This document shows, one piece after another, positions 4,053-28,329 of a DNA stretch of 64,000 nucleotides (position 1 is the stretch's first letter; every line of letters starts with the position of its first letter). The notes under the pieces were generated by a model, which saw nothing but the letters and a program-made list of their open reading frames with translations, did no database searches and had not been told where the DNA came from. The position numbers and the translations under genes were made by a program. Origin of the DNA: Hormiphora californensis (lineage: Eukaryota > Animalia > Ctenophora); contig CM035350.1 of the NCBI GenBank assembly GCA_020137815.1, positions 9,858,001 to 9,922,000 on the forward strand, read 5' to 3'.

Positions 4053-6377
4053 TCAGCCAGCAGGACCGTATGACTTGTCAAAGAGGTGCGTCTTCAGCTT
4101 CGATTTGAAGAGTGACTCATCTGTGCAGCTTCGAATTGTTTGAGGCAGGACATTCCACAGTCTCGGTCCTGCTACTTGGAAAGCACGCTGAGAAGTTTTA
4201 TACTTAGTGGAAAAGTCTTTTTGGAGAAGTGTTGGATCATCATCATGTCTCAGTGATTTGCACTTTAGTTGCCGCCTTTGTATTAGACTCTGTAGGTAGG
4301 ATGGTGCTAGATTGTTGATGCACTTGAAAACCATAAGACAGATCTTGTAGTCAATTCTCGCTGTGACAGGAAGAAAGTGCAGCTGCTTTCTCAGTTCTGT
4401 AACTCCTCTCCATTGCCACCTTCCAAAGATGAATCTTGTCGCTGCATTCTGCACTTTTTGAAGGCGGGTGATGTCACTTTTATCAGCTCCAATCAATAGG
4501 CCATTGCAGTAGTCTATGCGAGAGTGTATAAGGGAGTGAACCAGCTGGACTTTGTTTTTCTTTGACAGTTTGTCGCCGATGCGCCTCAGGTTGTGTAAGG
4601 TCATGTTGCAGTCCCTGACTACCTTGGAGATATGGGCTTTCATGGTGAGCCTTTCATCAAATATAACTCCTAAATTCCTTGCCTGTTCCGAGGGACTGAT
4701 GTACGTTGCCGGTTGATCAGATCTACGCAGAGAGAAAGACTCATCATGAGCGATGGGATTTGTAGTTTTGTCAGTCCGCGATGATATAAACAGTAGTTCT
4801 GTTTTGGAGGGGTTGAGTTTCAAATAACTCGATGCCATCCATTGCTCGATTTCTGAGAAACATTGTCGAAGCTGATCTTCATTTTGTGTCCAGTTGTTGT
4901 TGGTAAACTTCACATATAGCTGAGAGTCGTCTGCGTAAAGGTGAATCCTCATCCCATGTTTGGCCGCAATTTTCTCGAGGTCTTTCGTGAACAGAATAAA
5001 CATAAGGGGCCCCAAGATGGATCCCTGGGGCACTCCAATGTATACACTTACTTCAGCAGACTGGGAATCACCTATTTTGACAACAGCTTTCCTTCCTTCG
5101 AGATAAGAAGAGAACCATTTGAGAGCTGTTCCACTGACTCCATACATGTGCTGCAGGCGACGTAGAAGGATTGTATGAGGAACAGTATCAAAGGCAGCAG
5201 AGAGATCAAGTAGAAGGAGTACTGCCTTACTTTTCTTGTCAGTCATCACGAGTAGATCATTAAAGATCTTCAGGGTGGCCGTTTCACATGAGTGTTTCTT
5301 TCTGTAGGCAGACTGCACTGTAGCAAACAGCTCGTGTTCTTCCAGGTGTTCCGTCAATTGTAAAGAAACGCACTTTTCGATGATTTTAGAGATGAAGCTG
5401 AGGTTGGAGATAGGCCTGTAGCTTCCAACATCGTTGCTGTCTAACCCTTTCCCCTTGTACACAGGCCGGATAACTGCTTTCTTGAGGACAGAAGGAAATA
5501 CCCCGTTGACCAGACTACCGTTGACAATTGCTTTAATGATGGGGATCAGCTCGTGTATACAGGTTCCAACGAGCTTAGAAGGAATGGGATCGAGGTCACA
5601 GATTTTATAATTCATTGAACGAATGATCTTCACCAGCTCGTCACTGGTTACAGGTCTGAAAGAGTCAAACTTAGGCAGGCTATTTTCATCCTCAAGACCA
5701 GAAGCTTCCTCGGTGTCAGCACGCATTGCTTCAATTTCTGTGTAGATCTTGTTGATTTTTTCTTGGAAGAATTCAATGAATCTCTGGCATAGTTCGTCAA
5801 GATCCGTGTATTCAGGAAGTACTGATGAATTTTCATCCTTTCCCAGCAGACCATTCATGATTCTGTAAGACTTCTGCATATCACCATCGGCTTCATCAAG
5901 CTTCTCCCGATAATATCCATTCCTAACTCCAACGATAAACTTGGTTGCTGCTTTAGCCTCGTCACGTTTAGTTCGGAGACTGTCCCACAGTTTTTCAGGA
6001 CACACAGATTTCAACAGCGTGGCCAGATACTGTCGTTCAGCTTTCCTCCTACGACGTTTAGCAGCTTGACAATCAGTGTTATACCACTTGGGGCCTGGAT
6101 CTTCAGGGACAATCATCTCAGTGACCGGGGCAAGTTCATCGAGAAACTCAGCCAACATCTCATCATACAGTTCAATAAGTTCCTCCACCTCCGAGGGAAA
6201 GTTTTCTATGTCACAGAGAGGGGACTGTAGGATTGAGAATATTAGCTGTTCAATATCCAGTGATTTCATGTCTCTTTTCTTCACCGAGACAAACTTCTTC
6301 CGCTGGGCTGTAACTCCATTTTCTAGGGTGAATGACACCAGGGCATGATCAGGTACAGCAGGAATCATATCCACTTG
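4053..6377 (-). CDS. L2-type LINE ORF2, C-terminal part (end of AP endonuclease plus reverse transcriptase)
   Basis: PDH end of APE, YRPISNLSFISKIIEK, LLLLDLSAAFDTV, GVPQGSILGP, YADDSQLY, RIDYCNGLL; no internal stops. Confidence 0.95.
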   Translation of the reverse strand, partial: QVDMIPAVPDHALVSFTLENGVTAQRKKFVSVKKRDMKSLDIEQLIFSILQSPLCDIENFPSEVEELIELYDEMLAEFLDELAPVTEMIVPEDPGPKWYNTDCQAAKRRRRKAERQYLATLLKSVCPEKLWDSLRTKRDEAKAATKFIVGVRNGYYREKLDEADGDMQKSYRIMNGLLGKDENSSVLPEYTDLDELCQRFIEFFQEKINKIYTEIEAMRADTEEASGLEDENSLPKFDSFRPVTSDELVKIIRSMNYKICDLDPIPSKLVGTCIHELIPIIKAIVNGSLVNGVFPSVLKKAVIRPVYKGKGLDSNDVGSYRPISNLSFISKIIEKCVSLQLTEHLEEHELFATVQSAYRKKHSCETATLKIFNDLLVMTDKKSKAVLLLLDLSAAFDTVPHTILLRRLQHMYGVSGTALKWFSSYLEGRKAVVKIGDSQSAEVSVYIGVPQGSILGPLMFILFTKDLEKIAAKHGMRIHLYADDSQLYVKFTNNNWTQNEDQLRQCFSEIEQWMASSYLKLNPSKTELLFISSRTDKTTNPIAHDESFSLRRSDQPATYISPSEQARNLGVIFDERLTMKAHISKVVRDCNMTLHNLRRIGDKLSKKNKVQLVHSLIHSRIDYCNGLLIGADKSDITRLQKVQNAATRFIFGRWQWRGVTELRKQLHFLPVTARIDYKICLMVFKCINNLAPSYLQSLIQRRQLKCKSLRHDDDPTLLQKDFSTKYKTSQRAFQVAGPRLWNVLPQTIRSCTDESLFKSKLKTHLFDKSYGPAG

Positions 6378-7740
6378 TCACCCCTCCCTCTCCACACCAG
6401 CTCTCTCCGGTGCTCCTCTCCTGGGTCACCCCTCCCTCACCACACCTGCTCTCTCCGGTGTTCCTTTCCTGGGTCACCCCTCCCTCACCACACCTGCTCT
6501 CTCCGGTGCTCCTCTCCTGGGTCACCCCTCCCCCTCCACACCAGCTCTCTCCGGTGTTCCTCTCCTGGGTCACCCCTCCCTCACCACACCTGCTCTCTCC
6601 GGTGTTCCTTTCCTGGGTCACCCCTCCCTCTCCACACCAGCTCTCTCCGGTGTTCCTTTCCTGGGTCACCCCTCCCTCTCCACACCAGCTCTCTCCGGTG
6701 CTCCTCTCCTGGGTCACCCCTCCCTCACCACACCTGCTCTCTCCGGTGTTCCTTTCCTGGGTCACCCCTCCCTCTCCACACCAGCTCTCTCCGGTGCTCC
6801 TCTCCTGGGTCACCCCTCCCTCACCACACCTGCTCTCTCCGGTGTTCCTTTCCTGGGTCACCCCTCCCTCTCCACACCAGCTCTCTCCGGTGTTCCTTTC
6901 CTGGGTCACCCCTCCCTCTCCACACCAGCTCTCTCCGGTGCTCCTCTCCTGGGTCACCCCTCCCTCACCACACCTGCTCTCTCCGGTGTTCCTTTCCTGG
7001 GTCACCCCTCCCTCACCACACCTGCTCTCTCCGGTGCTCCTCTCCTGGGTCACCCCTCCCTCTCCACACCAGCTCTCTCCGGTGTTCCTTTCCTGGGTCA
7101 CCCCTACGTCTCCGGTGTTCCTCTCCTGGGTCACCCCTCCCTCTCCACACCTGCTCTCTCCGGTGCTCCTTTCCTGGGTCACCCCTCCCTCTCCACACCA
7201 GCTCTCTCCGGTGTTCCTTTCCTGGGTCACCCCTCCCTCTCCACACCAGCTCTCTCCGGTGCTCCTCTCCTGGGTCACCCCTCCCTCTCCACACCAGCTC
7301 TCTCCGGTGCTCCTCTCCTGGGTCACCCCTCCCTCACCACACCTGCTCTCTCCGGTGTTCCTTTCCTGGGTCACCCCTCCCTCACCACACCTGCTCTCTC
7401 CGGTGCTCCTCTCCTGGGTCACCCCTCCCTCTCCACACCAGCTCTCTCCGGTGTTCCTTTCCTGGGTCACCCCTACGTCTCCGGTGTTCCTCTCCTGGGT
7501 CACCCCTCCCTCTCCACACCTGCTCTCTCCGGTGCTCCTTTCCTGGGTCACCCCTCCCTCTCCACACCAGCTCTCTCCGGTGTTCCTTTCCTGGGTCACC
7601 CCTCCCTCTCCACACCAGCTCTCTCCGGTGCTCCTCTCCTGGGTCACCCCTCCCTCTCCACACCAGCTCTCTCCGGTGTTCCTTTCCTGGGTCACCCCTC
7701 CCTCACCACACCAGCTCTCTCCGATGCTCCTCTCCTGGAC
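6377..7740 (+). repeat. 48-bp tandem monomer array (~28-29 units) at the 5' end of the RTEX-like LINE
   Basis: Unit CTGGGTCACCCCTCCCTC(T/A)CCACACC(A/T)GCTCTCTCCGGTG(C/T)TCCT(C/T)TC; two 33-bp variant units ~369 bp apart. Confidence 0.95.
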
Positions 7741-7802
7741 CACCACTTCGATCCCTACACCTGAGACCGCAACCGAATACTCTGCTCATTCTTCTTCTTC
7801 TC

Positions 7803-10475
7803 ATGGTACTCCCAGGCCTCAGCTTTAACGTATCCTGGTTAAGTGGAAGTGGTAAATCCCACAGTAGCACTTTTATAGACACCGAACCAGTCCCTGAGGA
7901 TCAGACTACACCCACCAAAGCTAAACCTGACGCTGAATTCGTTACTCCCCAAGCAACAACTCCTCATCTCAGCAACACCACTCCCCAAGCAACAACTCCT
8001 CGTCTCAGCAACAGATACCTGAGCCGGAAAAGAACATGCAGCGAACATTCCATAGACGGATCCATATTAGACAATATCGGGCAGGATACACCGTCCCGGA
8101 ATGAACCTGCATATTCACAGCTCGACTCCAGAGGCCCTGTATACGACCCAAAGACCAACACACAGATACTGTTTAAGTCTACAGAAACAGACTTCCTGGA
8201 TACCATTGACCTATTGAGCATTGGACGCCAAATAAGTCACGACCTGATGGAGATACATGGGAACAACACCCTCAACTCGAAGTGCAAACTAAACATACGA
8301 ACAGCCAGTAATGATTGTCCGAAAATATACAAGGACCTTATATCCGCACTCCTCAACACACGTCAATCAATCTACCCAGACATCCCCGGCGATGATTGGA
8401 ACAATCTGACAATCATCTCCACCTACAGCAGGGAAAATGAAGTCAAATTCGTCACTGCAAATGATGTCTTGACAATCGTCCATATCGGAAGATCGCAGAC
8501 TGTTCAATACAAATCAAAATACAATATAGTGGACGCTCCTCTCGACAAAATCAGTGCTCTATTCATCAACCCGAAACACAGGAGCTCTGTCAAGGTTATC
8601 ACTAGCTCCTCCTCTGAAGAATCCCTTGACTTCCACTACTGGATAGTCCCCACATTCAGAACTCCAATACAAAATCCCATTCCACCTGCTGTGGAACCGG
8701 AATCCATCAGCCACACAACAGACTCGGCAAGAGAAACCACTGCCCAAGCATCTGACGAAACGAACGATCCCAAACCAGAGACCCGGGTAACCATAACCCC
8801 AGAAGAAAAAGATCCAGATGGCGCAACCGAGTCCACAACCACAAAAGAGATCAGTCCTGAAACAAGCTCAGAAGTGGCAACACCGGACTCGCCTAACCAA
8901 ATTATCTTTGAACCCGACAGCAAAAACTTCATCAAAAGGGAACTGGCGACAAATATAATCACTTCGGCCAGCAAGAAAACCCTCAAGAAGCTCTGCGAAG
9001 CAGCCGACCACACCTTCACTGACATACTCGATGCAAGGATGCTCCTTCTCAAAGACCTAGACTCTATCTTTGAAGAAACTAGTAGGCCCTCGGCTAAGTT
9101 TTGCCGAGCCATGCTGGAACAGTTGACATCAACCGCCGTAAACTTGGAACTAGACCGACTTGAAATTGAGTCAAGTGTCAACACGGTGGCCTTCAAAAGA
9201 ACTCTACTGGTCAAACACTGGTGCGAAGATTCTGAATCTACCCCACATACAGCTAGCCAAAAACCCGTTACTGCAGCAAGCTTAAAGAAATCTTCCAGGA
9301 AACAGCAGATTAAGGCCCCGACCGATCAACAGAAGGTTGGAGAATCCTCAGAACACACCAATGGGAACAGACAGGAAGATGTAGCCAAACAACCCGCTCA
9401 GCCTGAATCCTCTAAAGATATCATAATCAAGCTAATGGAAGAAAGACTTCTCTCACTGGAAAGAAAGATGGACTCGATGTCAGCGGCAATGGTCGCCAGC
9501 GACAACGGAACAGAACTGCTCCTAAGAGAATCAGAAACGAAGATCAAGAACCTCCAGAAATCAGTGGAAGATCAGCAAAAACTCTTACAGAATCAGCAAC
9601 TGTTGATCAATCAACTTCAAACCACCACGAACAACCTGAACCAAGCCCTTGAGAAATGCACCAAGGACCTCCAAGAACTCCGACCTACCCCTAGCAACCA
9701 CCAACCATCCTACAACTCACGGAGGAGGCAGGGCTCTACTAGACCAGATCAAAGCACAACCAGCTCTGGCAACACCACTCCAAACACCATCAGTCCCCAC
9801 ATGAGGCAGCCCAACGCACAACCACCCACTCAGAGAGGAACCACAACTGCAAGTGGAGACCTCGCTCCAAGAAAACCAAAATGCTTCATAGCCCACGGCG
9901 CGGAAATGGACTCATTTGATAGGACGCTGTTCTCAAAATCTTTCGACATCGAAACACACAAGATAACATCACTAGAGGAGGCCAAGACTGAACCCTCACA
10001 TCCCAGTGAACTCCAAAAAGCTATCAGGAAGCATCGCCCCGGTGCCATCGTCCTTCACGTAGGCAAGGAGGACATCCTTAAAAAACTTAAAGACAAGCAA
10101 CCTATTTCAGCTGAGATAGAAATACTAAAGTCTGTGGTAAAAGGGATACTACAAAACACCCCCTCTAAGATCTGCGTATCTCTACCGATACCGGCTCCCA
10201 AACTACCATCTCTCGATGCCAGCATCAAAAACTGGAACCTACAAATATCCAGATTCATCACAGAACTCAGGAAAAACCCAGCCTTCACTAACCGGGTATT
10301 CACAATAAACAACGCCAGAATCGGTGAACACACTACAACCCAAGTTGCAACAGACAGTGGGATAGAAAGTATACCAACCGAACATGGTGGGAAAAAACTC
10401 TGGCTAAATCTCAGAGAAGGGCTAAACAGAATGACCAATCCTAACCACAAAAGAAGAACTCACAATGAAGAGTAA
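7803..10475 (+). CDS. RTEX-like ORF1 (~890 aa from first AUG after the array): putative degenerate AlkB-like fold, coiled coil, degenerate SGNH esterase
   Basis: Open frame 6345-10475 with ATG at 7803; heptad-rich LMEERLLSLERK...LEKCTKDLQEL; C-terminal PGAIVLHVGKEDI...KICVSLPIP resembles SGNH block III. Confidence 0.8.
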   Translation: MVLPGLSFNVSWLSGSGKSHSSTFIDTEPVPEDQTTPTKAKPDAEFVTPQATTPHLSNTTPQATTPRLSNRYLSRKRTCSEHSIDGSILDNIGQDTPSRNEPAYSQLDSRGPVYDPKTNTQILFKSTETDFLDTIDLLSIGRQISHDLMEIHGNNTLNSKCKLNIRTASNDCPKIYKDLISALLNTRQSIYPDIPGDDWNNLTIISTYSRENEVKFVTANDVLTIVHIGRSQTVQYKSKYNIVDAPLDKISALFINPKHRSSVKVITSSSSEESLDFHYWIVPTFRTPIQNPIPPAVEPESISHTTDSARETTAQASDETNDPKPETRVTITPEEKDPDGATESTTTKEISPETSSEVATPDSPNQIIFEPDSKNFIKRELATNIITSASKKTLKKLCEAADHTFTDILDARMLLLKDLDSIFEETSRPSAKFCRAMLEQLTSTAVNLELDRLEIESSVNTVAFKRTLLVKHWCEDSESTPHTASQKPVTAASLKKSSRKQQIKAPTDQQKVGESSEHTNGNRQEDVAKQPAQPESSKDIIIKLMEERLLSLERKMDSMSAAMVASDNGTELLLRESETKIKNLQKSVEDQQKLLQNQQLLINQLQTTTNNLNQALEKCTKDLQELRPTPSNHQPSYNSRRRQGSTRPDQSTTSSGNTTPNTISPHMRQPNAQPPTQRGTTTASGDLAPRKPKCFIAHGAEMDSFDRTLFSKSFDIETHKITSLEEAKTEPSHPSELQKAIRKHRPGAIVLHVGKEDILKKLKDKQPISAEIEILKSVVKGILQNTPSKICVSLPIPAPKLPSLDASIKNWNLQISRFITELRKNPAFTNRVFTINNARIGEHTTTQVATDSGIESIPTEHGGKKLWLNLREGLNRMTNPNHKRRTHNEE

Positions 10476-13400
10476 TTCTCAAGGTGCACCCGAGGCAAAC
10501 AGTTGCACGCTCAACATCGTGTCCTGGAACATTCACGGAATCAAAGACGCTAATCTTGGGCCCAAAACCAACTGTCATGAATTCCTCGCCCAACTGGGTG
10601 GTTCCCACGTATTCCTGCTACAAGAAACAAAGGGATCTGTTGAAGTTGACAGCTACATCTGCCACAACAAGACACGTCCCAACCCACGATCTGGCGGACT
10701 AACCATCGGCGTCCACTCAACTATAGCAGCACACACTAAACTAATCAAAACTGACCACGAGGACCTTCTCGCACTAAGGATTTCCAGGAAAATCACCGGG
10801 ACAGGGAAGGACCTCACCATCATTAATGTATACGACTCCCCACCCGAAAGCAGTTACAAAAAGAAATGGGCAGGTACCAGTGAGGAGAGGGACACACTCC
10901 ATGACCTGAGCCAACTGCTCCTATCTCTAAGGCAAACCGAGATCCTAATTGCCGGTGACATGAACGCTAGATTGAGTGGACTCAACACGATCCCACCGAC
11001 TCAACACATCTCTGATGACATTCTCTCCAGCGGAGACCCGTCTTATAAGGAACTCCGCACCAGCAAAGATACTGTCTGCAATGACAGAGGAGCCAAGCTA
11101 CTTGACTGTCTGTCATCAGCTGAGCTTACCATCCTAAACGGCTGTACAATTGGCGATCTAACAGGACAGTATACCTGTCACACGTACAATGGAGCTAGTG
11201 TTGTTGATTACATCATTGCCTCTGATAGCATTCGCTGCTCCACCCGATCTCTCAAGGTCAGGCCACTCCTGCCACTATCGGACCACTGCCCAATAGAAGT
11301 GACGCTTAACACCAAGACGACATTGAAAAGTGCAACAGCCCAAAGGAAGTTTCTAAACCTACCAGACGCTCCTCGGCGAACCAAATGGAAAGACACTACC
11401 GCCCAGCTACTCAAAGAACGGCAAATGAAGGACTCTGATGCTATCTCTGGGTTAATCCGGACAACCTGCAATTGCCGTGATGATGTGTACACCATGAACC
11501 AAAAAATATCAGATCTGCTTGCCGCCCAACTCAAAAGCACTGAACCAGCTGTAGACAAGAAAAAGAAGCACAAAAAACGATACACGAAATCTAAATGGTA
11601 TGATAAAGAGTGTGACATCCTACGCTTTGAAACCAACCGCCTTGCACGAGCCCAGGGCAAGGGGAAAACTGCTAACCCCAGGATCAAAGACCTCTACCAC
11701 CAGCAGAAACGATTGTATCGTCGAACAATGAGGAACAAGAAGAGCCAGCTCAAGCAAAACTTGAGCAGCAGAATTCTCTCATCCAAAACATTGAACTGGG
11801 ACACAATCGAGGAACTGAAACAGCAATTCGATCAAAAAGAGGAACTCAGCATCTCTCATATGACCGACTTCCACAGCTTCTTCAATCAGCTTTACTCCAA
11901 AAATCAGAACGAGAAAACTGACACCTGGAAAGCTGACATCCATACTAAAATCAATCTGCAATCAGACCTGGAAAATGCACTCAACCAACCTATATGCACT
12001 AATGATGTCGAAAAGGCTATCAAGGATCTAAAAAGGGGCAAATCGCCAGGCATTGATGGAATACCTAACGAACTACTCAAAGAGGCATGTCCCAACACGA
12101 TACAGCTACTCACACATCTGTATAACCAATGCCTCGAACACGGCGTGTACCCTTGGAACACTACGGTTATAACACCTATCCACAAAAAAGGGCCCAAACA
12201 TGACCCTAACAACTACCGAGCCATTGCTGTAGGGAGCAGTCTGGGGCGTGTCTTCTCCGCCATCTATCTGGAGCGCCTAGTGAACTTCAGGAAGACTCAC
12301 TGCCCGGACCCGCCCAACCAACAAGGCTTTGTGAAGGGTGCCCAAACCAGCGACCACCTCTTAACACTCCATACTGCCATTCAGAAAGGAATACAGAACA
12401 AAGGAAGGCTCTACACTTGCTTTATCGACTTTCGTAAGGCATTTGATGGCCTCAACAGAGACGCCCTTCTCCTAAAACTGCTAAACCTTGGAGTTCGTGG
12501 GAAGTTCTTCAATGTACTCGACCACATGTACAACAACTCCAAGGCTCGCCTAAAACTAGCCCAGAAACTCTCTGATCTCATTGACATCCAAATTGGTACA
12601 GAACAAGGGCATGTCACAAGTCCAGAGCTTTTCAAGTGTTTCCTCTTGGACCTATCCACAATACTCAATGATAAAGACCTAAAATCTGACCCAGTAGCAC
12701 TAGGAACAGCCCTAGTGACTCACTTGCTCTGGGCTGATGATCTGGTACTTATGTCAACCTCGGCTAAGGGTCTACAAAAACTCCTCGATGCCCTCTACCG
12801 GTTCTGCTCTGATTGGGATCTTACCGTTAACACCGAAAAAACGGCTATAATGGTCTTTAACCAAGCTGGGAGGAAACTCAAAGAATCCAATGGCTTTCTC
12901 TACGGCGACTCACACATCCCATCAACCAAGACCTATCAATATCTCGGTTTGACTTTCTCGGTGAATGGTAACCTACGAGAAGCCCAAAAACAACTGAGAA
13001 TCAAGAGCATGCGGAGCATTTTCGCCATAAAAAGAATAGTGGATATCAGATCAATATCCAAGCAAGCGGCCCTAAAACTATTTGATGCTCTGGTAGCACC
13101 TGTAGCAGGGTATGCATCAGCTATCTGGCTGCACGAAACAAGATTTCTCAAGACATCTATAAATGGGAAGCATGTGAAAACTACATCGAAGGACATCTGG
13201 GACGACCAAACAGAAAAATGTCAAACCAGCTTTCTGAGATGGCTACTAGGACTTCGGAAAAACACACCGCTACCTCCACTCTACGGGGACACTGATAGAG
13301 TCCCCCTGGCCGTAAGAAACAGCAAACACCTGCTGGACTTCCACAATAGACTATGTATCATGAGCAACACTCTCGACAACCAAAGCAAGCTAGTCGTACA

Positions 13401-13965
13401 CGCCTATAACGAACAGAAGCGACTACAGTTGCCCTGGTATCAAAGTGTCCTAAGGACCTCCGAGATATTCGACTCCAATGCCCACCACCCGCAGAAGACA
13501 CTTCTCCCTAACTCCCAACTCGTGCAGGCCCGTATCTCAGATTGGTTTTGGACCCAATGGGACGATATTCGCCACAGCAACCGGAAGCTTGAATTCTACA
13601 ACAGTGTCAAGACCGGACATGGCTTTGAGGATTACCTAGAAAGAAGGACGGCACCTGACTTCATCAAGTTAAGAACGAGTACCCACCGCCTAAAAATCGA
13701 AACCGGACGCCATAACAAAACTGACAGATCTGAGCGCCTCTGTGATGATTGCTCCTCGCCCGAGTCTATACCTCTTCTGCGTGCCCTCCCTTTCTTCGAC
13801 CCAATCATCCAAGATGAGTGGCACATGCTGAATGAATGCACCCGCACCAAATCAGCTCGAGACCGCCTAACAGATCAAGACAGAACCTCCCTTCGTGGTC
13901 ATGTCTTCCCCTCACATATCAATCATCATCTCTCTCACCTAATTCACACCATCATCAACCCATAA
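10465..13965 (+). CDS. RTEX-like ORF2: AP endonuclease, reverse transcriptase, C-terminal CCHC zinc finger (1166 aa)
   Basis: SWNIHG, LQET, GDMNA, VDY, SDH; PGIDGIPNE, FIDFRKAFD, GTEQG, LWADD; KLRTSTHRLKIETGRH...RLCDDC...DEWHMLNEC. Overlaps ORF1 by 11 nt. Confidence 0.95.
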   Translation: MKSNSQGAPEANSCTLNIVSWNIHGIKDANLGPKTNCHEFLAQLGGSHVFLLQETKGSVEVDSYICHNKTRPNPRSGGLTIGVHSTIAAHTKLIKTDHEDLLALRISRKITGTGKDLTIINVYDSPPESSYKKKWAGTSEERDTLHDLSQLLLSLRQTEILIAGDMNARLSGLNTIPPTQHISDDILSSGDPSYKELRTSKDTVCNDRGAKLLDCLSSAELTILNGCTIGDLTGQYTCHTYNGASVVDYIIASDSIRCSTRSLKVRPLLPLSDHCPIEVTLNTKTTLKSATAQRKFLNLPDAPRRTKWKDTTAQLLKERQMKDSDAISGLIRTTCNCRDDVYTMNQKISDLLAAQLKSTEPAVDKKKKHKKRYTKSKWYDKECDILRFETNRLARAQGKGKTANPRIKDLYHQQKRLYRRTMRNKKSQLKQNLSSRILSSKTLNWDTIEELKQQFDQKEELSISHMTDFHSFFNQLYSKNQNEKTDTWKADIHTKINLQSDLENALNQPICTNDVEKAIKDLKRGKSPGIDGIPNELLKEACPNTIQLLTHLYNQCLEHGVYPWNTTVITPIHKKGPKHDPNNYRAIAVGSSLGRVFSAIYLERLVNFRKTHCPDPPNQQGFVKGAQTSDHLLTLHTAIQKGIQNKGRLYTCFIDFRKAFDGLNRDALLLKLLNLGVRGKFFNVLDHMYNNSKARLKLAQKLSDLIDIQIGTEQGHVTSPELFKCFLLDLSTILNDKDLKSDPVALGTALVTHLLWADDLVLMSTSAKGLQKLLDALYRFCSDWDLTVNTEKTAIMVFNQAGRKLKESNGFLYGDSHIPSTKTYQYLGLTFSVNGNLREAQKQLRIKSMRSIFAIKRIVDIRSISKQAALKLFDALVAPVAGYASAIWLHETRFLKTSINGKHVKTTSKDIWDDQTEKCQTSFLRWLLGLRKNTPLPPLYGDTDRVPLAVRNSKHLLDFHNRLCIMSNTLDNQSKLVVHAYNEQKRLQLPWYQSVLRTSEIFDSNAHHPQKTLLPNSQLVQARISDWFWTQWDDIRHSNRKLEFYNSVKTGHGFEDYLERRTAPDFIKLRTSTHRLKIETGRHNKTDRSERLCDDCSSPESIPLLRALPFFDPIIQDEWHMLNECTRTKSARDRLTDQDRTSLRGHVFPSHINHHLSHLIHTIINP

Positions 13966-14090
13966 TACACACACTACCACCGCCCACCATACCTCTCCTC
14001 TCAACCCCCCTGAACCCTCTCTCTACCCCTCCTACTCCCACTTTTTTTATAGTTATATGACAATAATATTATTGTTAAGTACTTTTTAAT

Positions 14091-14153
14091 TTGAATCTTG
14101 AATCTTGAATCTTGAATCTTGAATCTTGAATCTTGAATCTTGAATCTTGAATC
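14091..14153 (+). repeat. (TTGAATC)9 3' tail of the RTEX-like LINE
   Basis: Nine perfect 7-mers directly before the host sequence resumes. Confidence 0.95.
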
Positions 14154-14796
14154 TATTGGAGATGGGAGAAGTACCAGGTAAGGTCTTGGCAAGGACCAAA
14201 TCCAGTGTACCACCCGCTATATGAGTAGGTTCCGAAACAAATTGATGAAAATGATGGTCATCGAGAAGCCCGAGAAAGGTTTTAGTTGATCCGGAACTGG
14301 TATCTTGCACATGTATGTTGAAATCACCTGAAATAACCACCTCTCCAGGTCGTTCCGAAAGGTCATGGAGCAACGACTCGAATTCATCGAAGAAGGTAGA
14401 AATAGGGCTGGATGGAGGGCGATAGATGCCAAGAAGACGGAGGGGTTGGAACTTGGTTCCCTGAGCTGTAGGATTGGAACTCTTTTGAGTGATGAGAGTT
14501 TCCACACACTCGAATGATGAAAATGAGTGCTTTACCTGAACATGGTGGAAGGATTTCCTCATGAGGATGGCGACACCACCTCCTCTAGAGCCACGCGGCC
14601 TGCTAACCAACTTGTAGCCATGCTCTCTAGTCTCTCTCTCAATAGCACTCTCATCTAAGTGTAACCACGTCTCGCTTAAACACACTGCATCAATATCACT
14701 GTCAGAAATACTCAATAAAACATCTAACAACTTGTTACGCAACGAGAAACAGTTAACAGTGGCCAGTTTTAACCCTACTGGTTTTTTGAACGAGCT
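14154..14796 (-). CDS. L2-type LINE ORF2, N-terminal part (AP endonuclease); no initiating AUG
   Basis: LKLATVNCFSLRNK, CLSETWL, RGGGVAI, GIYRPP, GDFNIH, PTHIAGGTLDLV; frame opens right after TGA at 14799-14797. Confidence 0.9.
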
Positions 14797-15995
14797 TCAT
14801 TGAACTTAGACAGATACAAGGGACAATCTCGACTGTTTGCAGCATGGGCAACATCTGACTTTTTCGCAACAGAACAGTTATTACATTTAGGAGTGAAACT
14901 TTCGTTAGATTTTGCCGTACAGTCTTTAGAAGAATGTTCTTGAGAACAGTGGGTACACACTGGACGTCTGTTACACACATCTTGCGTGTGGTGGAAGTCC
15001 TGACAATTATAACACTGAATAACCCGCACACGATCCACCACCCTACACGCCATATAACCAACATATACTACTCCTTGTCCCAGTATCTGCCGTTTGATTG
15101 TAGTAGGCAGCCTTAGTCCAATTGTACATGTATCAGGGACACGATCATTTACCCTGTAGTATATCACATCAATGTTATCATTGTCCAGTTGCTCATTTTT
15201 CTCCTTAAGCATACCAAGTATTTCCTGGCACCTCACCGAGCGATCAGTAGTTTGCCTCATGGAATCAGTAAGAGGGAAGTTGAGGACTGTTATCTTGCAA
15301 GTGGGTTCGGATCGAACTCTGACAGTTGTTGAAGAGAGGTCCTTATTGAGGGCATCTGCTGCCTTATCACCATCAGTACTGGGCACAGTAATGATCACCG
15401 CATTTTTCGTCTTGACCAACCGAGAGACTTTCGTTTTAGACAGGGCAGTCTCACTGAGCCTGTGTACTTCATCAACATCAGCCTCCTTGCAGTCAACGAC
15501 GATTTTCCTGTATGATGGTTTTGTTGGAGGGGCAGTAAGAGGTATGGCAGCTGGGAGCACTGTAGGAATGGAGGGGGTGGAAGGTTTTCCAGACATAGCA
15601 AGTTGGGCATAAGATGGTTGGAGTTGCTGAATGGTTTCTTTGACAGTCAGCTGGAGTTCTTCCCGGAATTGGATAAACCGTTCATCTTGTTGTTTTGCAA
15701 GTTTGACGAGGATATTTGCGTCACTGTTATTATCATTCTGAGCTGGTTTGTTGCATTGGGTAGCTTCGTTCCAAAGCGCTCTATAGGCGACCTTTATAAC
15801 CTTCCATAAGTCATTTCTACTGACCGTACGTTCGGTGTTTCCAGACATTTCTCCGTTATCTTGTAGCAGGCTAAACAGGTTCATTTGGGTGAGCATTTCT
15901 TCAACTTTCTCCAGCTCACATTGGATATCGGGTGGATCAGCCATCTCGTCTCTTTTATCAGACATGGGACTGCCCATCGTGGGCTGTTGATACAT
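14775..15995 (-). CDS. L2-type LINE ORF1, gag-like nucleic-acid-binding protein (406 aa)
   Basis: PSYA motif; QCYNCQDFHHTQDVC, CTHCSQEHSSKDC and CNNC...H...C zinc knuckles; ends SKNQ*. Confidence 0.9.
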   Translation of the reverse strand: MYQQPTMGSPMSDKRDEMADPPDIQCELEKVEEMLTQMNLFSLLQDNGEMSGNTERTVSRNDLWKVIKVAYRALWNEATQCNKPAQNDNNSDANILVKLAKQQDERFIQFREELQLTVKETIQQLQPSYAQLAMSGKPSTPSIPTVLPAAIPLTAPPTKPSYRKIVVDCKEADVDEVHRLSETALSKTKVSRLVKTKNAVIITVPSTDGDKAADALNKDLSSTTVRVRSEPTCKITVLNFPLTDSMRQTTDRSVRCQEILGMLKEKNEQLDNDNIDVIYYRVNDRVPDTCTIGLRLPTTIKRQILGQGVVYVGYMACRVVDRVRVIQCYNCQDFHHTQDVCNRRPVCTHCSQEHSSKDCTAKSNESFTPKCNNCSVAKKSDVAHAANSRDCPLYLSKFNEARSKNQ

Positions 15996-16135
15996 TCGAT
16001 CTACCTGCTCAAATTAATTTGTTTAAAGTAGTGTTGAAAAGCTTGCAGTCTTGTTAGTTTCGGTCGATCTTATTCGGCAAGGTTATTTGAAAAATCACAA
16101 GCTACCAGTTGGTAACGATTCTGCACTATTGGAGT

Positions 16136-17522: not shown

Positions 17523-17806
17523 TCTCTTACACTTTTCACAACTTTATCAGTTAGTCGTAAAGTCGGACTTTCTGAAGTTGTCACACTAAACGTTGACGGT
17601 TGAATTTGGTGATATGTATTTCTCTTTGACCCATACACCACACGTTAAAACGTGATAGGCGTGCAAAAAACGAGCACACAAGAATGGGGGACTATACATA
17701 CAGTTTGAGTTGCCTTCACTCCCTTGACTTTTTGTATGTTTAATGGAGTGGTTAGTTTAATTGAATTAACGCTCTTCAGTTTCCCGGGTAACCCCAGGTT
17801 GGATCC

Positions 17807-18991
17807 ATGGATGTCGAGAAAGAAGAAGCGAAGACATCGGAGCTGGTCAAAAGCTGCCTTTTCCAGATGAGAGCTCACAAGCTCGAGAAGATGGTCGAAA
17901 CGGTGAAAGAAGTGAGAGAGATCGACCGTCAAATTCCATCATTCTACAGCCGAATTAAAAAGCTGGCCATGTGCAGTACTGGGCAATTCCACCGAGAGGG
18001 TAAATTCCGTTACTGGTTTAAAGAAATTCACCGAGTATCGTGTAAAACAAGCCTACCAATCGATCAGTTATTCACCCGGGCTCTACGGTACACACAACAC
18101 TCCCTTGTTCCTTCCTCGCAATACTGTCACGCAACAAGGACCCTTCCTAATGGTCGGTATATGGCACAGTTAAAGAAAGGAAGGACCCTGACTATATCAT
18201 CATCACCCACTGCAGTCGAACAGTTTCACCTCACATCACCCCTTACCAATGTGACAGGATTCACTTGGGACGTGTCTCTACCATCTCAGTGTATGGTAGT
18301 AATCGGTTTTCATGGCTTGGTAATGAGTCGAGTGTTTGAGGGAAGGACGATCTGGGAAGGTAGGTCACCCACCCATGTTTGTTGTACCCGAGGACTCACC
18401 ATGGAAACCTTCATCACCCTAGGGGACAGGTTGCAAGTATGGGATATAAGACAATGTTATCCCGCTCTCTCTTGGCCCCATGCCTCCCTCTGTGCCTCGG
18501 GTGGGGACTGTTGTGTGGTTATCTCGGAACGGGAGGTTGTGTGTGCGGACAAAGAAGGGTTCCTCTCAAGGTACGACCTGAGGTGTGGCCCGGGGGTTCC
18601 TTTAAAAAGAGAGAAGACCTGGTTTAGCTCCATATTCAGTGTCTCAATATGTGGTGTCTCCTCCTGTGTCTCCTCGTGTGGAGGACAGAATGTTTTGGTG
18701 CAGAGTGTCACTGGGAAGGTCAGGGTGTTCGATAGTTCAAGTCTCACGTTACAAGAGGCAAGTTATGAAGGGCAGGAATCATTCAGTACTCTCCCAGGTT
18801 GTGTCTTTGGTCCAGATATGTTCCTGGCTGTAAACAACAATACTGGGGAGCTCATGGTGTTCGATACTGTCTTCAGAAAGCCTCTACTGAGAGCTAAAGT
18901 CGAGGAAGGAGTTATGTCTGCTGGTCAATTGGAGCCGGGGGTGGCAGTTTTATCAGGAATTAAAGGAGCTCAGGTGATCAAGTGTTTTTAA
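17807..18991 (+). CDS. Intronless WD40/beta-propeller-like protein (394 aa)
   Basis: Long ATG-initiated ORF with strand-ending motifs LQVWDIR, LSRYDLR, KVRVFDS, ELMVFDT; divergent, family not recognised. Confidence 0.65.
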   Translation: MDVEKEEAKTSELVKSCLFQMRAHKLEKMVETVKEVREIDRQIPSFYSRIKKLAMCSTGQFHREGKFRYWFKEIHRVSCKTSLPIDQLFTRALRYTQHSLVPSSQYCHATRTLPNGRYMAQLKKGRTLTISSSPTAVEQFHLTSPLTNVTGFTWDVSLPSQCMVVIGFHGLVMSRVFEGRTIWEGRSPTHVCCTRGLTMETFITLGDRLQVWDIRQCYPALSWPHASLCASGGDCCVVISEREVVCADKEGFLSRYDLRCGPGVPLKREKTWFSSIFSVSICGVSSCVSSCGGQNVLVQSVTGKVRVFDSSSLTLQEASYEGQESFSTLPGCVFGPDMFLAVNNNTGELMVFDTVFRKPLLRAKVEEGVMSAGQLEPGVAVLSGIKGAQVIKCF

Positions 18992-23382: not shown

Positions 23383-25217
23383 GTTGAAGATCGTTTAGTA
23401 AAACCACTGTGTATCTACCCGACACCACGACCATCTCTGTACAATATGATGGACAGATATTTGGATCGGCCCTTTGTGGTAGAGTTTGTGAGAGAAAATA
23501 ATTCCAGGCTTGGTATGACGCTCTGTCTAAATGAAGAGGAACATCTTGCTGTCAAGAATATCGTGTCAACAGGTTAGTGCACGCTGTATATAGTTTAGAG
23601 GGGGATTTTGGAACATAGAGTGCAAGTGTGAGCACTTGAACAAAGTATCAAATTCCCTTCCATTTCCCTATATGAATGTCAGCGGGTGAAAATTTGTCTG
23701 ATATACCCCGCCCGCTATTAAAAGCAAGGATGTTTTTGCCGCTAAAACTTATAATCAATAAATCCTTGCTTATATAAAGTATAAACCCATCCCTTTGGTA
23801 GGGTTTTATACCATATACCACCCTCCCTGCTTCGCAGGTCGGGCAGTATATGGTGCAGCGAATCACCCTAGCGGGTGACCCGCTACATATAAACCCAGGT
23901 TTATTGATTACATATCCATCACCAGGTCCTGATCCCAGATCCTCTCTTCACCAGATCTAGTCTTGACTGACCTCACCTCTTCCCCCAGGTCTAATATACC
24001 AAGATGGCCGTCTCCGGTCGGGTGACGTTGTCCCTGCAATAAACGATGTCCCCGTTAGTGGCCTATCATTCGAACAGGCAGCCTACTACGACAATGCAAG
24101 AATAGGGTCCGACTAACTGTAATGAATGCCAATCTTGTCCAGTGCCCCCATCCGATGCAGAGCTGGAGATGCTCTTTAATATCGGGGATGGAGATAGCAG
24201 TGCACTTACCACTCATGAGTAAGTTTCAGATCACACGTTGCTACTTGCTATAATCTCTTACCAGTTCCAGTATCGATCAAATCACACCCCCTGCCTTGCC
24301 TTGTTCGACCTTGTTGCACTGTAGGCTAAGTTACACTATAGTAGCTGGAAAGTTACTCCGCCGTGATTAGGGAGGGAGAATTGTTAGAGATAGAGATGGA
24401 TATGGAGATGGAGATGGACTATGGAGATGGAGAGATGGAGAGATGGAGAGATGGAGAGATGGAGAGATGGAGAGATGGAGAGATGGAGAGATGGAGAGAT
24501 GGAGAGATGGAGAGATGGAGAGATGGAGAGATGGAGAGATGGAGAGATGGAGAGATGGAGAGATGGAGAGATGGAGAGATGGAGAGATGGAGAGATGGAG
24601 AGATGGAGAGATGGAGAGATGGAGAGATGGAGAGATGGAGAGATGGAGAGATGGAGAGATGGAGAGATGGAGAGATGGAGAGATGGAGAGGATGGAGAGA
24701 TGGAGAGATGGAGAGATGGAGAGATGGAGAAGATGGAGAGATGAGAGCTGCGCGCTGGCGCGCCTGGCGCGCTGGCGCGCTGGCGCGCTGGCGCGCTGCG
24801 CCGCTGCGCGCGCCTGGCGCGCTGCGCGCTGGCGCGCTGGCGCGCGCGCGCGCGCGCGCGCGACGCGCGCGCTCGCGAGAGCATTTCATAGTCTTTCTTT
24901 TGAATGGGATTCTTGTTGTGTGTGTTTACAAATTTTTAGGAGGGTCAGAACTCAGAACATAACAACCTGCTCACACTCCCCTGATACCGAGTGCAGATCT
25001 CTCTAAACCCTGTTCATCCTCTAGGTTTGACGATCAGTAAAACTCTACACTACGAACAAATAGTGACGGTGACAATAGTTCGGCAGGCTCTTGGCATCAC
25101 CATTCTGCATTCTGATTCAGGGAGGTAGCGACACACTCCAGGGCTGTATCAGGGTGTTGAGTAGTCCTGCAGTGGCGACTGAGATTATACCTAAGGATAC
25201 ACTGCTCAGTGTAGCTG
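23383..25217 (+). pseudogene. Decayed multi-PDZ-domain gene
   Basis: Exon 23383-23572 FVVEFVRENNSRLGMTLCLNEEEHLAVKNIVSTG. Exon from ~23989 LIYQDGRLRSGDVVPAINDVPVSGLSFEQAA, then frameshift to LLRQCKNRVRLTV. Second PDZ near 25025-25217 (IVRQALGITIL...* ...SPAVATEIIPKDTLLSVAG) with stops. Confidence 0.65.
24421..24876. repeat. (GATGGAGA)n microsatellite followed by (GCTGGCGC)n/(GC)n
   Basis: About 40 copies of the 8-mer, then an A-to-C transliterated version from ~24745. Confidence 0.9.
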
Positions 25218-26967: not shown

Positions 26968-28329
26968 ATGGTTAACATGCAAGATGATGAAAAAGTTGAA
27001 GGAAGGCAGCCACGATCAGAGGAGTTCCGTCCCCAGGCACCTCGAGATTACAAGAGGAAAAACTACTGGCAAAACAGGAAGGATAACAAACCGAACTCAA
27101 ACTATCGCCCTAAATCAGCAGACCAAGATGAGAAAAAGCCACTCCCTCACGGGCATTATCGGCACAAAAACTCGAACAAACCTCGGTTTGCTAAGAAGTT
27201 TGCTGAAAATTACAAGCAACAAACAAAATCGGATCCACCAGAGACGCCCAGTGATCCACCAACATCTTTATTACCTACCCCCACTGCCAAACCTGAAACA
27301 TCGAACCATCAATCCAACTCCGCCATATCACCCGATAAACCGAAACAGCAAGAACCCCCAGTACCAGAGAAGTCGCCTCTTATCCCTAGAGTGGACACAA
27401 TAACGACACCCAGAGTTGATATTATCACCTCTCCTCGAGTAGATATTATCACCACACCTAGGGCTGATATTATCACCTCTCCTAGGGCTGATATTATCAC
27501 CTCTCCTCGAGTTGATATAATCACCTCTCCTAGGACTGATATAATCACCTCTCCTAGGGCTGATATAATAGCCACACCTAGAGTAGAGATGACAAACGGT
27601 ATTAAAGCAGTTCCAACGCCGGAGAAAGATGTCTTTGAAAAGCTAAAGAGTGGAGAAGAAAATGCTCTTGAAAACTTGAAAGAGCTCTACGATAACATCC
27701 CTGATATCACCAAGACGGAGATCGTCTCCAAGGATCGGGAAGGCTGGACCGCTGAAGAGGATAGTTCCGAGGGAGGTCCTGACCATCACCATCATCACCC
27801 ATCGTCCATGCCAGGACCATGTAACAGATGTGGGTGTGGAACCCCTGCCTTCTTCCCTGGCATGTTCCCACCAATGCACCCGGCATATTACTACGCCATG
27901 TGGAACTTCCATTACCCCATCCCACCCCCTCCGGTACACCGTCTAGCCCACGCCCCATCCCTACCCTGCCCCGACCCAGCAGCACCTGGAGGGGATGCTA
28001 GTACAACCCACAAACGGTACATTTCCCGCTCCACCAGGACACCCGGTACTATACCCTTTGTGCTTCACTCCACGGATAACCTCCGGATTGTGAGTGTACG
28101 ACCTGCCGAGGGTGCTTCTACCTCCACCCCTTTCACCATCACCGCTGACCTCTGCAACGAAGAGGGTGACATCGTCGCGGAGAACTTTGTACTTCACAGT
28201 GAGGAATCACCCAAAATGTGGGAACAGTTCGCCTTCTCAGGGAATCACACCGTGTATTTCCGGATAACTGCACCTGATGATCCTGCTACGATTGTCCTGA
28301 CTTTACTTCACGAGGTCCTAGTGAAGTAG
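26968..28329 (+). CDS. Uncharacterised 453-aa protein: basic N-terminus, 8-aa PR(V/A)DIITS repeats, Pro/His-rich middle, beta-rich C-terminal domain
   Basis: Single long ORF; ATG directly after a polypyrimidine-TAG acceptor; 24-bp coding minisatellite at ~27385-27585. Confidence 0.7.
   Translation: MVNMQDDEKVEGRQPRSEEFRPQAPRDYKRKNYWQNRKDNKPNSNYRPKSADQDEKKPLPHGHYRHKNSNKPRFAKKFAENYKQQTKSDPPETPSDPPTSLLPTPTAKPETSNHQSNSAISPDKPKQQEPPVPEKSPLIPRVDTITTPRVDIITSPRVDIITTPRADIITSPRADIITSPRVDIITSPRTDIITSPRADIIATPRVEMTNGIKAVPTPEKDVFEKLKSGEENALENLKELYDNIPDITKTEIVSKDREGWTAEEDSSEGGPDHHHHHPSSMPGPCNRCGCGTPAFFPGMFPPMHPAYYYAMWNFHYPIPPPPVHRLAHAPSLPCPDPAAPGGDASTTHKRYISRSTRTPGTIPFVLHSTDNLRIVSVRPAEGASTSTPFTITADLCNEEGDIVAENFVLHSEESPKMWEQFAFSGNHTVYFRITAPDDPATIVLTLLHEVLVK

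Follow-up and report, generated by a model that had tools for sequence, protein, structure and literature searches.

We analysed a stretch of 64,000 nucleotides from the ctenophore Hormiphora californensis (assembly GCA_020137815.1, contig CM035350.1, positions 9,858,001 to 9,922,000; hereafter the window), which contains a complete retrotransposon without long terminal repeats (a non-LTR retrotransposon or long interspersed nuclear element, LINE) on the + strand. Our results make it probable that the protein encoded by the first open reading frame (ORF1p) of this intact, multi-copy LINE carries a domain with the fold of the 2-oxoglutarate (2OG)-Fe(II) oxygenases, most likely derived from AlkB, which is devoid of iron-binding residues in every one of the six family members and likely acts as a non-catalytic binding module. 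Statements on the family refer to six sequences, namely the window protein and five relatives. The two features that are central to this study are the following (positions are those of the window):

7803..10475, + strand: ORF1, 890 amino acids, intact; 7803 is the first ATG within an open frame at 6336-10475
8112..8654, + strand: domain with a predicted 2OG-Fe(II)-oxygenase (AlkB-like) double-stranded beta-helix fold, without Fe ligands (ORF1p residues 104-284)

A first-pass annotation of the sequence had described a globular island between linkers at 8170-8660 and had listed six motifs within it. All six were located in the ORF1 frame and in the given order: TDFLD (8187-8201), CPKIYKDLISALL (8316-8354), WNNLTIISTY (8397-8426), VLTIVHIGRSQTVQY (8466-8510), LDKISALFI (8541-8567) and IVPTFR (8643-8660). 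The island itself is predicted to be ordered, is flanked by low-confidence linkers and is conserved in five other proteins; its extent had to be revised to a somewhat wider region of about 8112-8654.

Predicted fold of the ORF1p domain

The structure of ORF1p residues 101-481 was modelled with AlphaFold from the six family sequences, without templates and with no AlkB protein in the alignment. The prediction contained two ordered domains, the first with predicted local distance difference test (pLDDT) values of 63-87 over model residues 11-160. A Foldseek search with this model returned 83 chains of the PDB at E<=0.001, and among the matches listed from rank 1 to 25 only E. coli AlkB or ALKBH3 occurred. 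In a VIA comparison over 48,161 chains ALKBH3 was the top match (Z 12.8, root-mean-square deviation (rmsd) 3.8 A, 169 residues aligned), followed within one Z unit by 2rg4 (12.5), Ofd2, FTO, Naegleria TET1 (12.3), ALKBH7 and AlkB; prolyl hydroxylases were found at Z 11.1-11.3. By title or known family, we take all 50 VIA matches listed to be oxygenases of this fold. A second structural comparison gave Z 13.4 for ALKBH3 (rmsd 3.7 A, 167 residues), 13.2 for E. coli AlkB and 13.0 for the unnamed structure 3bvc. The double-stranded beta-helix together with an N-terminal strand and helices is shared with ALKBH3 (8JNR, 2IUW), AlkB (3KHC, 3I3Q), FTO and ALKBH7 (Z 12.4-13.4, 155-176 residues aligned), from which the domain differs by a sequence identity of 6-13%, the lack of HxD...H and RxxxxxR and its location within a retrotransposon ORF1p. 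The top matches in BFVD include polyproteins of plant RNA viruses as well as AlkB-like proteins of giant viruses. In addition, ESM features of one relative (P0008) placed 27 of 30 named matches in the PF13532 (2OG-FeII_Oxy_2) set with a score of 0.92. On the basis of these models we regard it as very likely that the segment adopts the double-stranded beta-helix fold of 2OG-Fe(II) oxygenases. The AlphaFold and Foldseek check suggested in the first-pass annotation hence returned the very fold whose absence had been named there as counter-evidence.

Several results weigh against this assignment. Pfam gave no match for the domain at E<=1 or 10, neither in the window nor in the relatives, and searches of the PDB with phmmer and with profiles gave no AlkB match, the best hits (E 0.45-1.5) being unrelated proteins. 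Aligned to a set of 19 bacterial AlkB proteins, the family profile reached an hhalign score of 12.3, which was equalled by 74 of 100 column shuffles. An AlphaFold model of the single sequence had a pLDDT of 33 and no usable fold, and in the six-sequence model the confidence was lowest at the catalytic positions (63 in strand II, 57 in the last strand). Identity to the structural matches is 4-16%, in alignments known from their ends alone. The ESM matches of P0008 share 146-152 features compared to 170 typical of true family members, and the ESM search with the window's own sequence was weak, with a recognition of 2166 (<2300) and a PF13532 entry of 0.89 at an 11% share. Finally, AlkB homologues lead the structural matches with Naegleria TET1 and two unnamed proteins of bacterial origin, 2rg4 and 3bvc, within one Z unit.

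The missing sequence-level support, the number of only six sequences and the rmsd of 3-4 A or more could indicate that the match arose as an artefact of predicting the fold from a shallow alignment. We consider this highly improbable, as the five models agree in their mean pLDDT (61.5-65.3), Z values of 12-13 over about 165 of 185 residues are far above the 7-8 that are typical of chance, and ESM, a separate method, names the same superfamily when applied to a different member, P0008. More weight is due to the question from which branch of the superfamily the fold originates. TET/JBP enzymes, prolyl-hydroxylase-like proteins or a so far unnamed family of microbes or viruses are possible sources, an option that we rate as a minority one and that would be compatible with the interpretation given above. 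It would fit the Z values of Naegleria TET1 (12.3) and 2rg4 (12.5) next to that of ALKBH3 (12.8), the prolyl hydroxylases and 3bvc somewhat below and above these, the apparent lack of a lid (see below) and an Asp_Arg_Hydrox cluster among the ESM matches of the window. On the other hand, the Foldseek matches named above are all AlkB or ALKBH3, and PF13532 dominates the named ESM matches of P0008. Five of the seven top VIA matches (ALKBH3, Ofd2, FTO, ALKBH7 and AlkB) belong to the AlkB family, if Ofd2 is counted as a member, as we presume it to be. Together, the model-based comparisons suggest that the fold probably belongs to the AlkB branch. Of the AlkB-like domain that had been postulated for this ORF1p, the 2OG-oxygenase barrel is thus supported, whereas the AlkB subfamily is likely, with ties within one Z unit.

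Relatives and conservation of the domain

A full phmmer (HMMER) scan of 1.84 billion representative proteins yielded four matches, three of which were true relatives; the fourth, a protein with PKD repeats (P0006, E 3.8e-4), was discarded as a chance match. Two further relatives were obtained by profile search among 7992 candidates. Another profile search (1441 candidates) added no new relative, and a word-seeded search started from just the window domain had no match in its 454 candidates. One relative stems from the ctenophore Pleurobrachia bachei (EukProt EP00116 P010098), while the other four are ENA proteins. The three full-length relatives share the layout of the window protein, i.e. domain, linker, helical domain, basic patch, coiled coil and C-terminal alpha/beta domain. 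The contigs encoding two of the relatives measure 7063 and 7175 bases, which is the size of a whole LINE, and the relatives appear to be LINE ORF1 proteins as well. Their DNA was absent from the viral contigs and JGI metagenomes searched.

Within the domain, the window sequence is 25-27% identical to the five relatives, and 19 columns of the six-sequence alignment are invariant. Relatives P0005 and P0008 are 53-56% identical in the domain and 25-27% in the adjoining linker; for P0003 and P0004 the respective values are 76% and 52%. The barrel seems to have been kept under selection, because it is more conserved than the linker (P0005/P0008) and contains the invariant columns mentioned above. 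A point against this is the comparison of the window with P0005, in which domain and linker are both 25% identical. This low identity, together with a 70-base gap inside the domain in some copies (run X6), is what would be expected if the domain were a relic with no role except folding and spacing, retained as the frame must stay open. Such a relic is improbable in our view, since length, gap pattern and all 19 invariant columns were preserved over 75% divergence and since both pairs of closer relatives differ less in the domain than in the linker.

Loss of the iron- and 2-oxoglutarate-binding residues

Two features mark the former active site:

8427..8465, + strand: strand II region, position of HxD in AlkB (ORF1p 209-221); no His in six of six sequences
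8628..8642, + strand: invariant D276-x-H278-x-W280 in the last strand, six of six sequences

The HxD position was placed between Y208 and G229 based on the strand order of the AlphaFold model and on the anchor IVHIG, which corresponds to IVSVSLG of AlkB. The window domain contains no HxD/E at all. On strand VII, no His is conserved across the six sequences: the window has H259 and three relatives have a His past that strand, neither of which is common to the family. Hence, the HxD/E...H iron triad, which is the motif of 2OG-Fe(II) oxygenase enzymes (PMC8892091), is lacking in all six, as the first-pass annotation had noted for the window. Judged by sequence, the ligand loss is family-wide, and canonical dioxygenase activity is very unlikely.

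All 11 E. coli AlkB alignments end at an offset of 26, which would place H278 at R204, W280 at N206 and T284 at R210, presuming that the last ten residues contain no gap, as only the alignment ends were seen. The alignments to ALKBH3, ALKBH2 and FTO give the same register with the residue numbers that we assume for these proteins. Consequently, the RxxxxxR of AlkB (R204 and R210 in E. coli) is missing, with H278 and T284 falling at its two arginines, and the D-x-H-x-W motif would occupy the old 2OG site. The IVPTFR motif had initially been equated with the RxxxTFR end of AlkB. This did not hold: the superposition places its Arg two residues past R210, the relatives read HFWV(S/V/T)L at the window PTFR and R286 is absent in all five. 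On this predicted register the TFR resemblance is a coincidence. A forced hhalign alignment that paired PTFR with LTFR was rejected, as it had no significance and conflicted with the structural register. The domain does not belong to the AlkB enzymes, since a test for their defining residues found none of them; very probably, however, it is built on their fold.

Besides D276 and H278, further polar residues are invariant (Y176, D178, Q232 and D244). D276, H278 and W280 as well as N or H227 and Y208 are predicted to be located in the former cofactor pocket or close to it. One could therefore imagine that the protein is still an enzyme or a metal or ligand binder with a moved site, in which D276-x-H278 together with N/H227, Q232 or D244 replaces HxD...H. 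The number of invariant polar residues exceeds the needs of a plain scaffold, and H278 would map into the barrel. Nevertheless, there is no second conserved His, H278 would replace the 2OG-anchoring Arg and W280 would crowd the pocket, which makes a moved site doubtful at best.

Apparent loss of the nucleic acid lid

From the first strand to the Asn/Tyr strand the domain comprises 84 residues compared to 102 in E. coli AlkB, a lid region that is about 18 residues shorter, taking the secondary structure of the latter as we assume it to be. The links around the strand at model residues 61-66 consist of just 3 and 7 residues. AlkB proteins grip nucleic acid through the lids Flip1 and Flip2 (PMC8892091). 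Because the matching region is shorter and the links are short, the nucleotide-recognition (base-flipping) lid is likely to be largely gone in the model. The isoelectric point (pI) of the domain is 5.3-6.5 and its net charge is neutral to negative in six of six sequences. Several active AlkB proteins likewise have a pI near 6, which renders charge a weak argument and has to be held against our interpretation.

These data bear on the possibility that the domain provides an esterase-type ORF1p with its missing structured module for RNA binding. It might then read methylated bases and protect the RNA of the element from writers or erasers of the host. In favour of this idea, the top structural matches are nucleic acid demethylases, esterase-type ORF1 proteins have been reported without a structured RNA-binding domain (PMC3905857), the mobility of human L1 is affected by RNA methylation (PMC7873242) and the conserved aromatic residues W280 and Y208 would lie at or near the old pocket. 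Conversely, the lids with which AlkB proteins grip nucleic acid (PMC8892091) look largely deleted, the net charge is not positive in any member, nothing corresponds to the last Arg of AlkB and RNA could be bound by basic patches elsewhere in ORF1p. We therefore rate an RNA-binding role as rather unlikely, and the methyl-RNA reader that had been suggested for this domain is weakened by the apparent lid loss and the low pI.

Other domains of ORF1p

Downstream of the barrel, three further regions were recognised:

8913..9230, + strand: second conserved domain with six predicted helices (ORF1p 371-476; pLDDT 82-92)
9408..9692, + strand: predicted coiled coil (heptad scan; weak matches to coiled-coil families)
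9867..10442, + strand: likely SGNH/GDSL-esterase-like domain, catalytic Ser and His absent

The six-helix domain is 31-35% identical between the window and its relatives and hence better conserved than the barrel. Its best Pfam match was EAD1 with an E-value of 0.09. An interpretation as two SAP/HeH motifs, which the domain seemed to resemble, was not supported, as the two halves align at chance level (57 of 200 shuffles). The heptad-rich stretch behind it agrees with the coiled coil that had been expected to follow the AlkB-like domain. ORF1p contains basic patches elsewhere, and Pfam revealed neither an RRM nor a CCHC domain in the protein.

For the C-terminal domain, Pfam Lipase_GDSL_2 was found in two of three relatives (E 0.0098 and 0.16) and was not found in the window. 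The profile of the domain aligned end-to-end and colinearly with eight bacterial SGNH proteins; the alignment was weak, and 3 of 150 shuffles scored as high. At the positions of the SGNH motifs GDS, GxND and DxxH the window reads HGA, GKED and none, and three relatives read HDG, GWND and none. The catalytic Ser and His are absent in all four sequences that cover this domain. The loss of the three motifs in the window, which the earlier description of a degenerate SGNH esterase rested on, is therefore evident, whereas the SGNH assignment itself is weakly supported. The proposed double pseudo-enzyme is likely, with the SGNH half being the less certain one, and its frame is intact in a multi-copy element. 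In Athena retroelements, GDSL derivatives devoid of catalytic residues have been described before (PMC5408684).

Structure, copies and insertion site of the element

The remaining features of the element are listed below:

6377..7738, + strand: 48-bp tandem array, about 28 copies (TRF period 48/96/144)
10465..13965, + strand: ORF2, apurinic/apyrimidinic (AP)-type endonuclease and reverse transcriptase (RT) (Pfam RVT_1 8.9e-28, Exo_endo_phos_2 3.6e-09)
14091..14154, + strand: 3' tail (TTGAATC)9

The element shows the characteristics of AP endonuclease (APE)-type non-LTR retrotransposons, namely an ORF2 with endonuclease and RT, an upstream ORF1, a simple-repeat 3' tail and many copies with an excess of 3' sequence. 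In a search of the PDB, ORF2 also matches R2 and LINE-1 ORF2p, and its C-terminus is presumably RTEX-like. The ATG of ORF2 overlaps the final 11 bases of ORF1 (10465-10475) in a different frame, an arrangement suited to coupled re-initiation. The 48-bp array starts where the frame of a host LINE is interrupted and, from its position, is likely the 5' untranslated or promoter region of the element. The 16-codon unit contains no stops in all three + frames and one - frame over 6377-7738. The ORF1 frame crosses the array without any ATG, and an upstream non-ATG start is possible.

A single contig of sequencing run X1 covers 7760-11153 gap-free with 11 substitutions at a depth of 430. The depth, taken without a single-copy baseline, rises from 430 over ORF1 to 900-1870 toward the 3' end. 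This pattern would fit a young, multi-copy and often 5'-truncated family. Six DNA runs, drawn from two studies of a single organism, contained 74-92% of the sampled ORF1 words; one of these runs is possibly the window's own source. Between the window and the contigs of runs X1, X5 and X6, the sole difference listed in the domain is silent (8177), apart from the gap in some copies. This gap corresponds to 70 bases skipped inside the domain (8315-8386) in contigs of run X6 at a depth of 568 and would be a frame-breaking internal deletion. One oligo-dT metatranscriptome contained a 181-base piece matching 8528-8708 at a depth of 7.8, which may be DNA. No ORF1 sequence was obtained from one run with the same species label that we guessed to be RNA.

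The element is nested in a second LINE on the - strand, whose RT half (4053-6377) and endonuclease half (14086-14796) flank it. The insertion point lies in the ORF2 of the second LINE just past the endonuclease domain, and both halves remain open. The ORF1 of the second LINE (14775-16013, - strand, 412 amino acids) has Cys/His knuckle-like motifs at its end and no Pfam match at E<=0.001. A clear target-site duplication was not detected (6374-6377 compared to 14091-14160). The left flank ends with CTTG, which is also part of the (TTGAATC)n tail unit. Because CTTG is common to flank and tail, priming through tail-target matching may be possible. Elsewhere in the window, stop-free frames of 399, 453 and 286 codons occur on the + strand at 17792-18991, 26968-28329 and 56759-57619 without a Pfam match at E<=0.001, and the region 24345-25006, in which five frames of 168-211 codons overlap and both strands are open, is probably another tandem array.

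Comparison with known systems

With its predicted coiled coil, the putative SGNH-like domain behind it at the C-terminus and its basic patches, the protein resembles the esterase-type (type IV) ORF1p of CR1, L2 and RTEX elements, for instance that of zebrafish ZfL2-1 (PMC3905857, PMC4120745). It is about three times longer than these and carries the oxygenase-fold and six-helix domains in front, and, in contrast to the active esterase of ZfL2-1, its esterase-like part lacks the catalytic Ser and His. Esterase-type ORF1p multimerises by the coiled coil, and because it has no structured RNA-binding domain it has been proposed to hold RNA by basic peptides (PMC3905857).

Retention of an AlkB-type domain by a retrotransposon has been described for Ty3/Gypsy elements of Phalaenopsis, in which AlkB is encoded by a separate ORF and represents a recent capture close to ALKBH5/9B with intact cofactor residues and demonstrated demethylase activity (PMC9289625). 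In comparison to these LTR elements, the domain reported here belongs to a LINE, is fused into ORF1p, is very diverged and is disarmed. The AlkB domains of plant RNA virus replicases, which also place this fold in a multi-domain protein of a parasite with an RNA stage, are reported to be active demethylases (PMC9289625); they reside in replicases, whereas here the domain is part of the particle-forming ORF1p.

The N-terminal domain of vaccinia C16 (C16-N) is a 2OG-oxygenase fold without cofactor ligands that binds host PHD2 (PMC9674614). It thus shares with our domain the loss of cofactor ligands from this fold in a genetic parasite, protein binding being a feature of C16-N. Our model matched it (8AG3) with Z 10.6, rmsd 3.1 A, 142 aligned residues and 8% identity. 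C16-N differs in being PHD2-like, poxviral and joined to a Ku-binding domain. Because of the identity of 8%, we see in it a parallel case that gives no sign of kinship.

That an ORF1 can host enzyme domains is known from oyster Tx1, which carries NADAR (PMC12477816). A LINE ORF1 with the fold described here was not found in the literature covered, including the accessible text of PMC11203168 and PMC6338049, with Repbase Reports, most subscription journals and supplements outside this scope. The main text of a survey of ORF1 proteins contains no mention of AlkB or dioxygenase.

Proposed function and evolution

We propose that an ancestor, probably in the ctenophore lineage, placed a host or viral oxygenase domain before an ORF1p consisting of coiled coil and esterase. 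Catalysis and most of the base-flipping lid would have disappeared ahead of the divergence of the six sequences to 25% identity. The barrel seems to have been held under selection with conserved residues around the old cofactor pocket. The coiled coil would multimerise ORF1p and the basic patches would hold the RNA. The dead oxygenase barrel would sit on the particle and offer a surface for docking. Its partner would more likely be a protein, either ORF1p itself or a host factor, than a flipped methyl base. We consider it likely that the domain was retained as a binding module, for which a protein partner has about an even chance and a nucleic acid partner a distinctly lower one. Two points limit this scenario. 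The protein-docking step relies on the analogy with vaccinia C16-N, and HxD...H is intact in none of the five relatives. Of the RNA demethylase module that the first-pass annotation assumed to have been acquired, the AlkB-like fold is therefore supported, whereas the capture of an active demethylase can only be surmised.

It may further be speculated, as a tentative extension, that an old lineage of ctenophore LINEs builds its RNA particle from two disarmed enzymes. The AlkB-type module, after dropping iron site and lid and refilling its pocket with the invariant D-x-H-x-W, could be turned against the RNA-modification or silencing machinery of the host, as a decoy or for docking, converging with poxvirus C16, and the dead esterase could serve membrane or particle assembly.

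No part of LINEs varies more than ORF1, and it is an open question in the field how the esterase-type proteins assemble particles and escape host control. An oxygenase barrel that is undetectable by sequence search would add a class of ORF1 modules, with no earlier description for a LINE ORF1 in the literature covered, and would be a module retained long after catalysis was lost. As the reported AlkB captures in plant viruses and the orchid Gypsy elements are active, the ORF1 domain would be their dead counterpart. Since the domain is small, soluble-looking and has few invariant residues, its partner can be sought directly. Moreover, our findings suggest that other ORF1 proteins regarded as unclassified may conceal decayed enzyme folds that are visible only by structure prediction.

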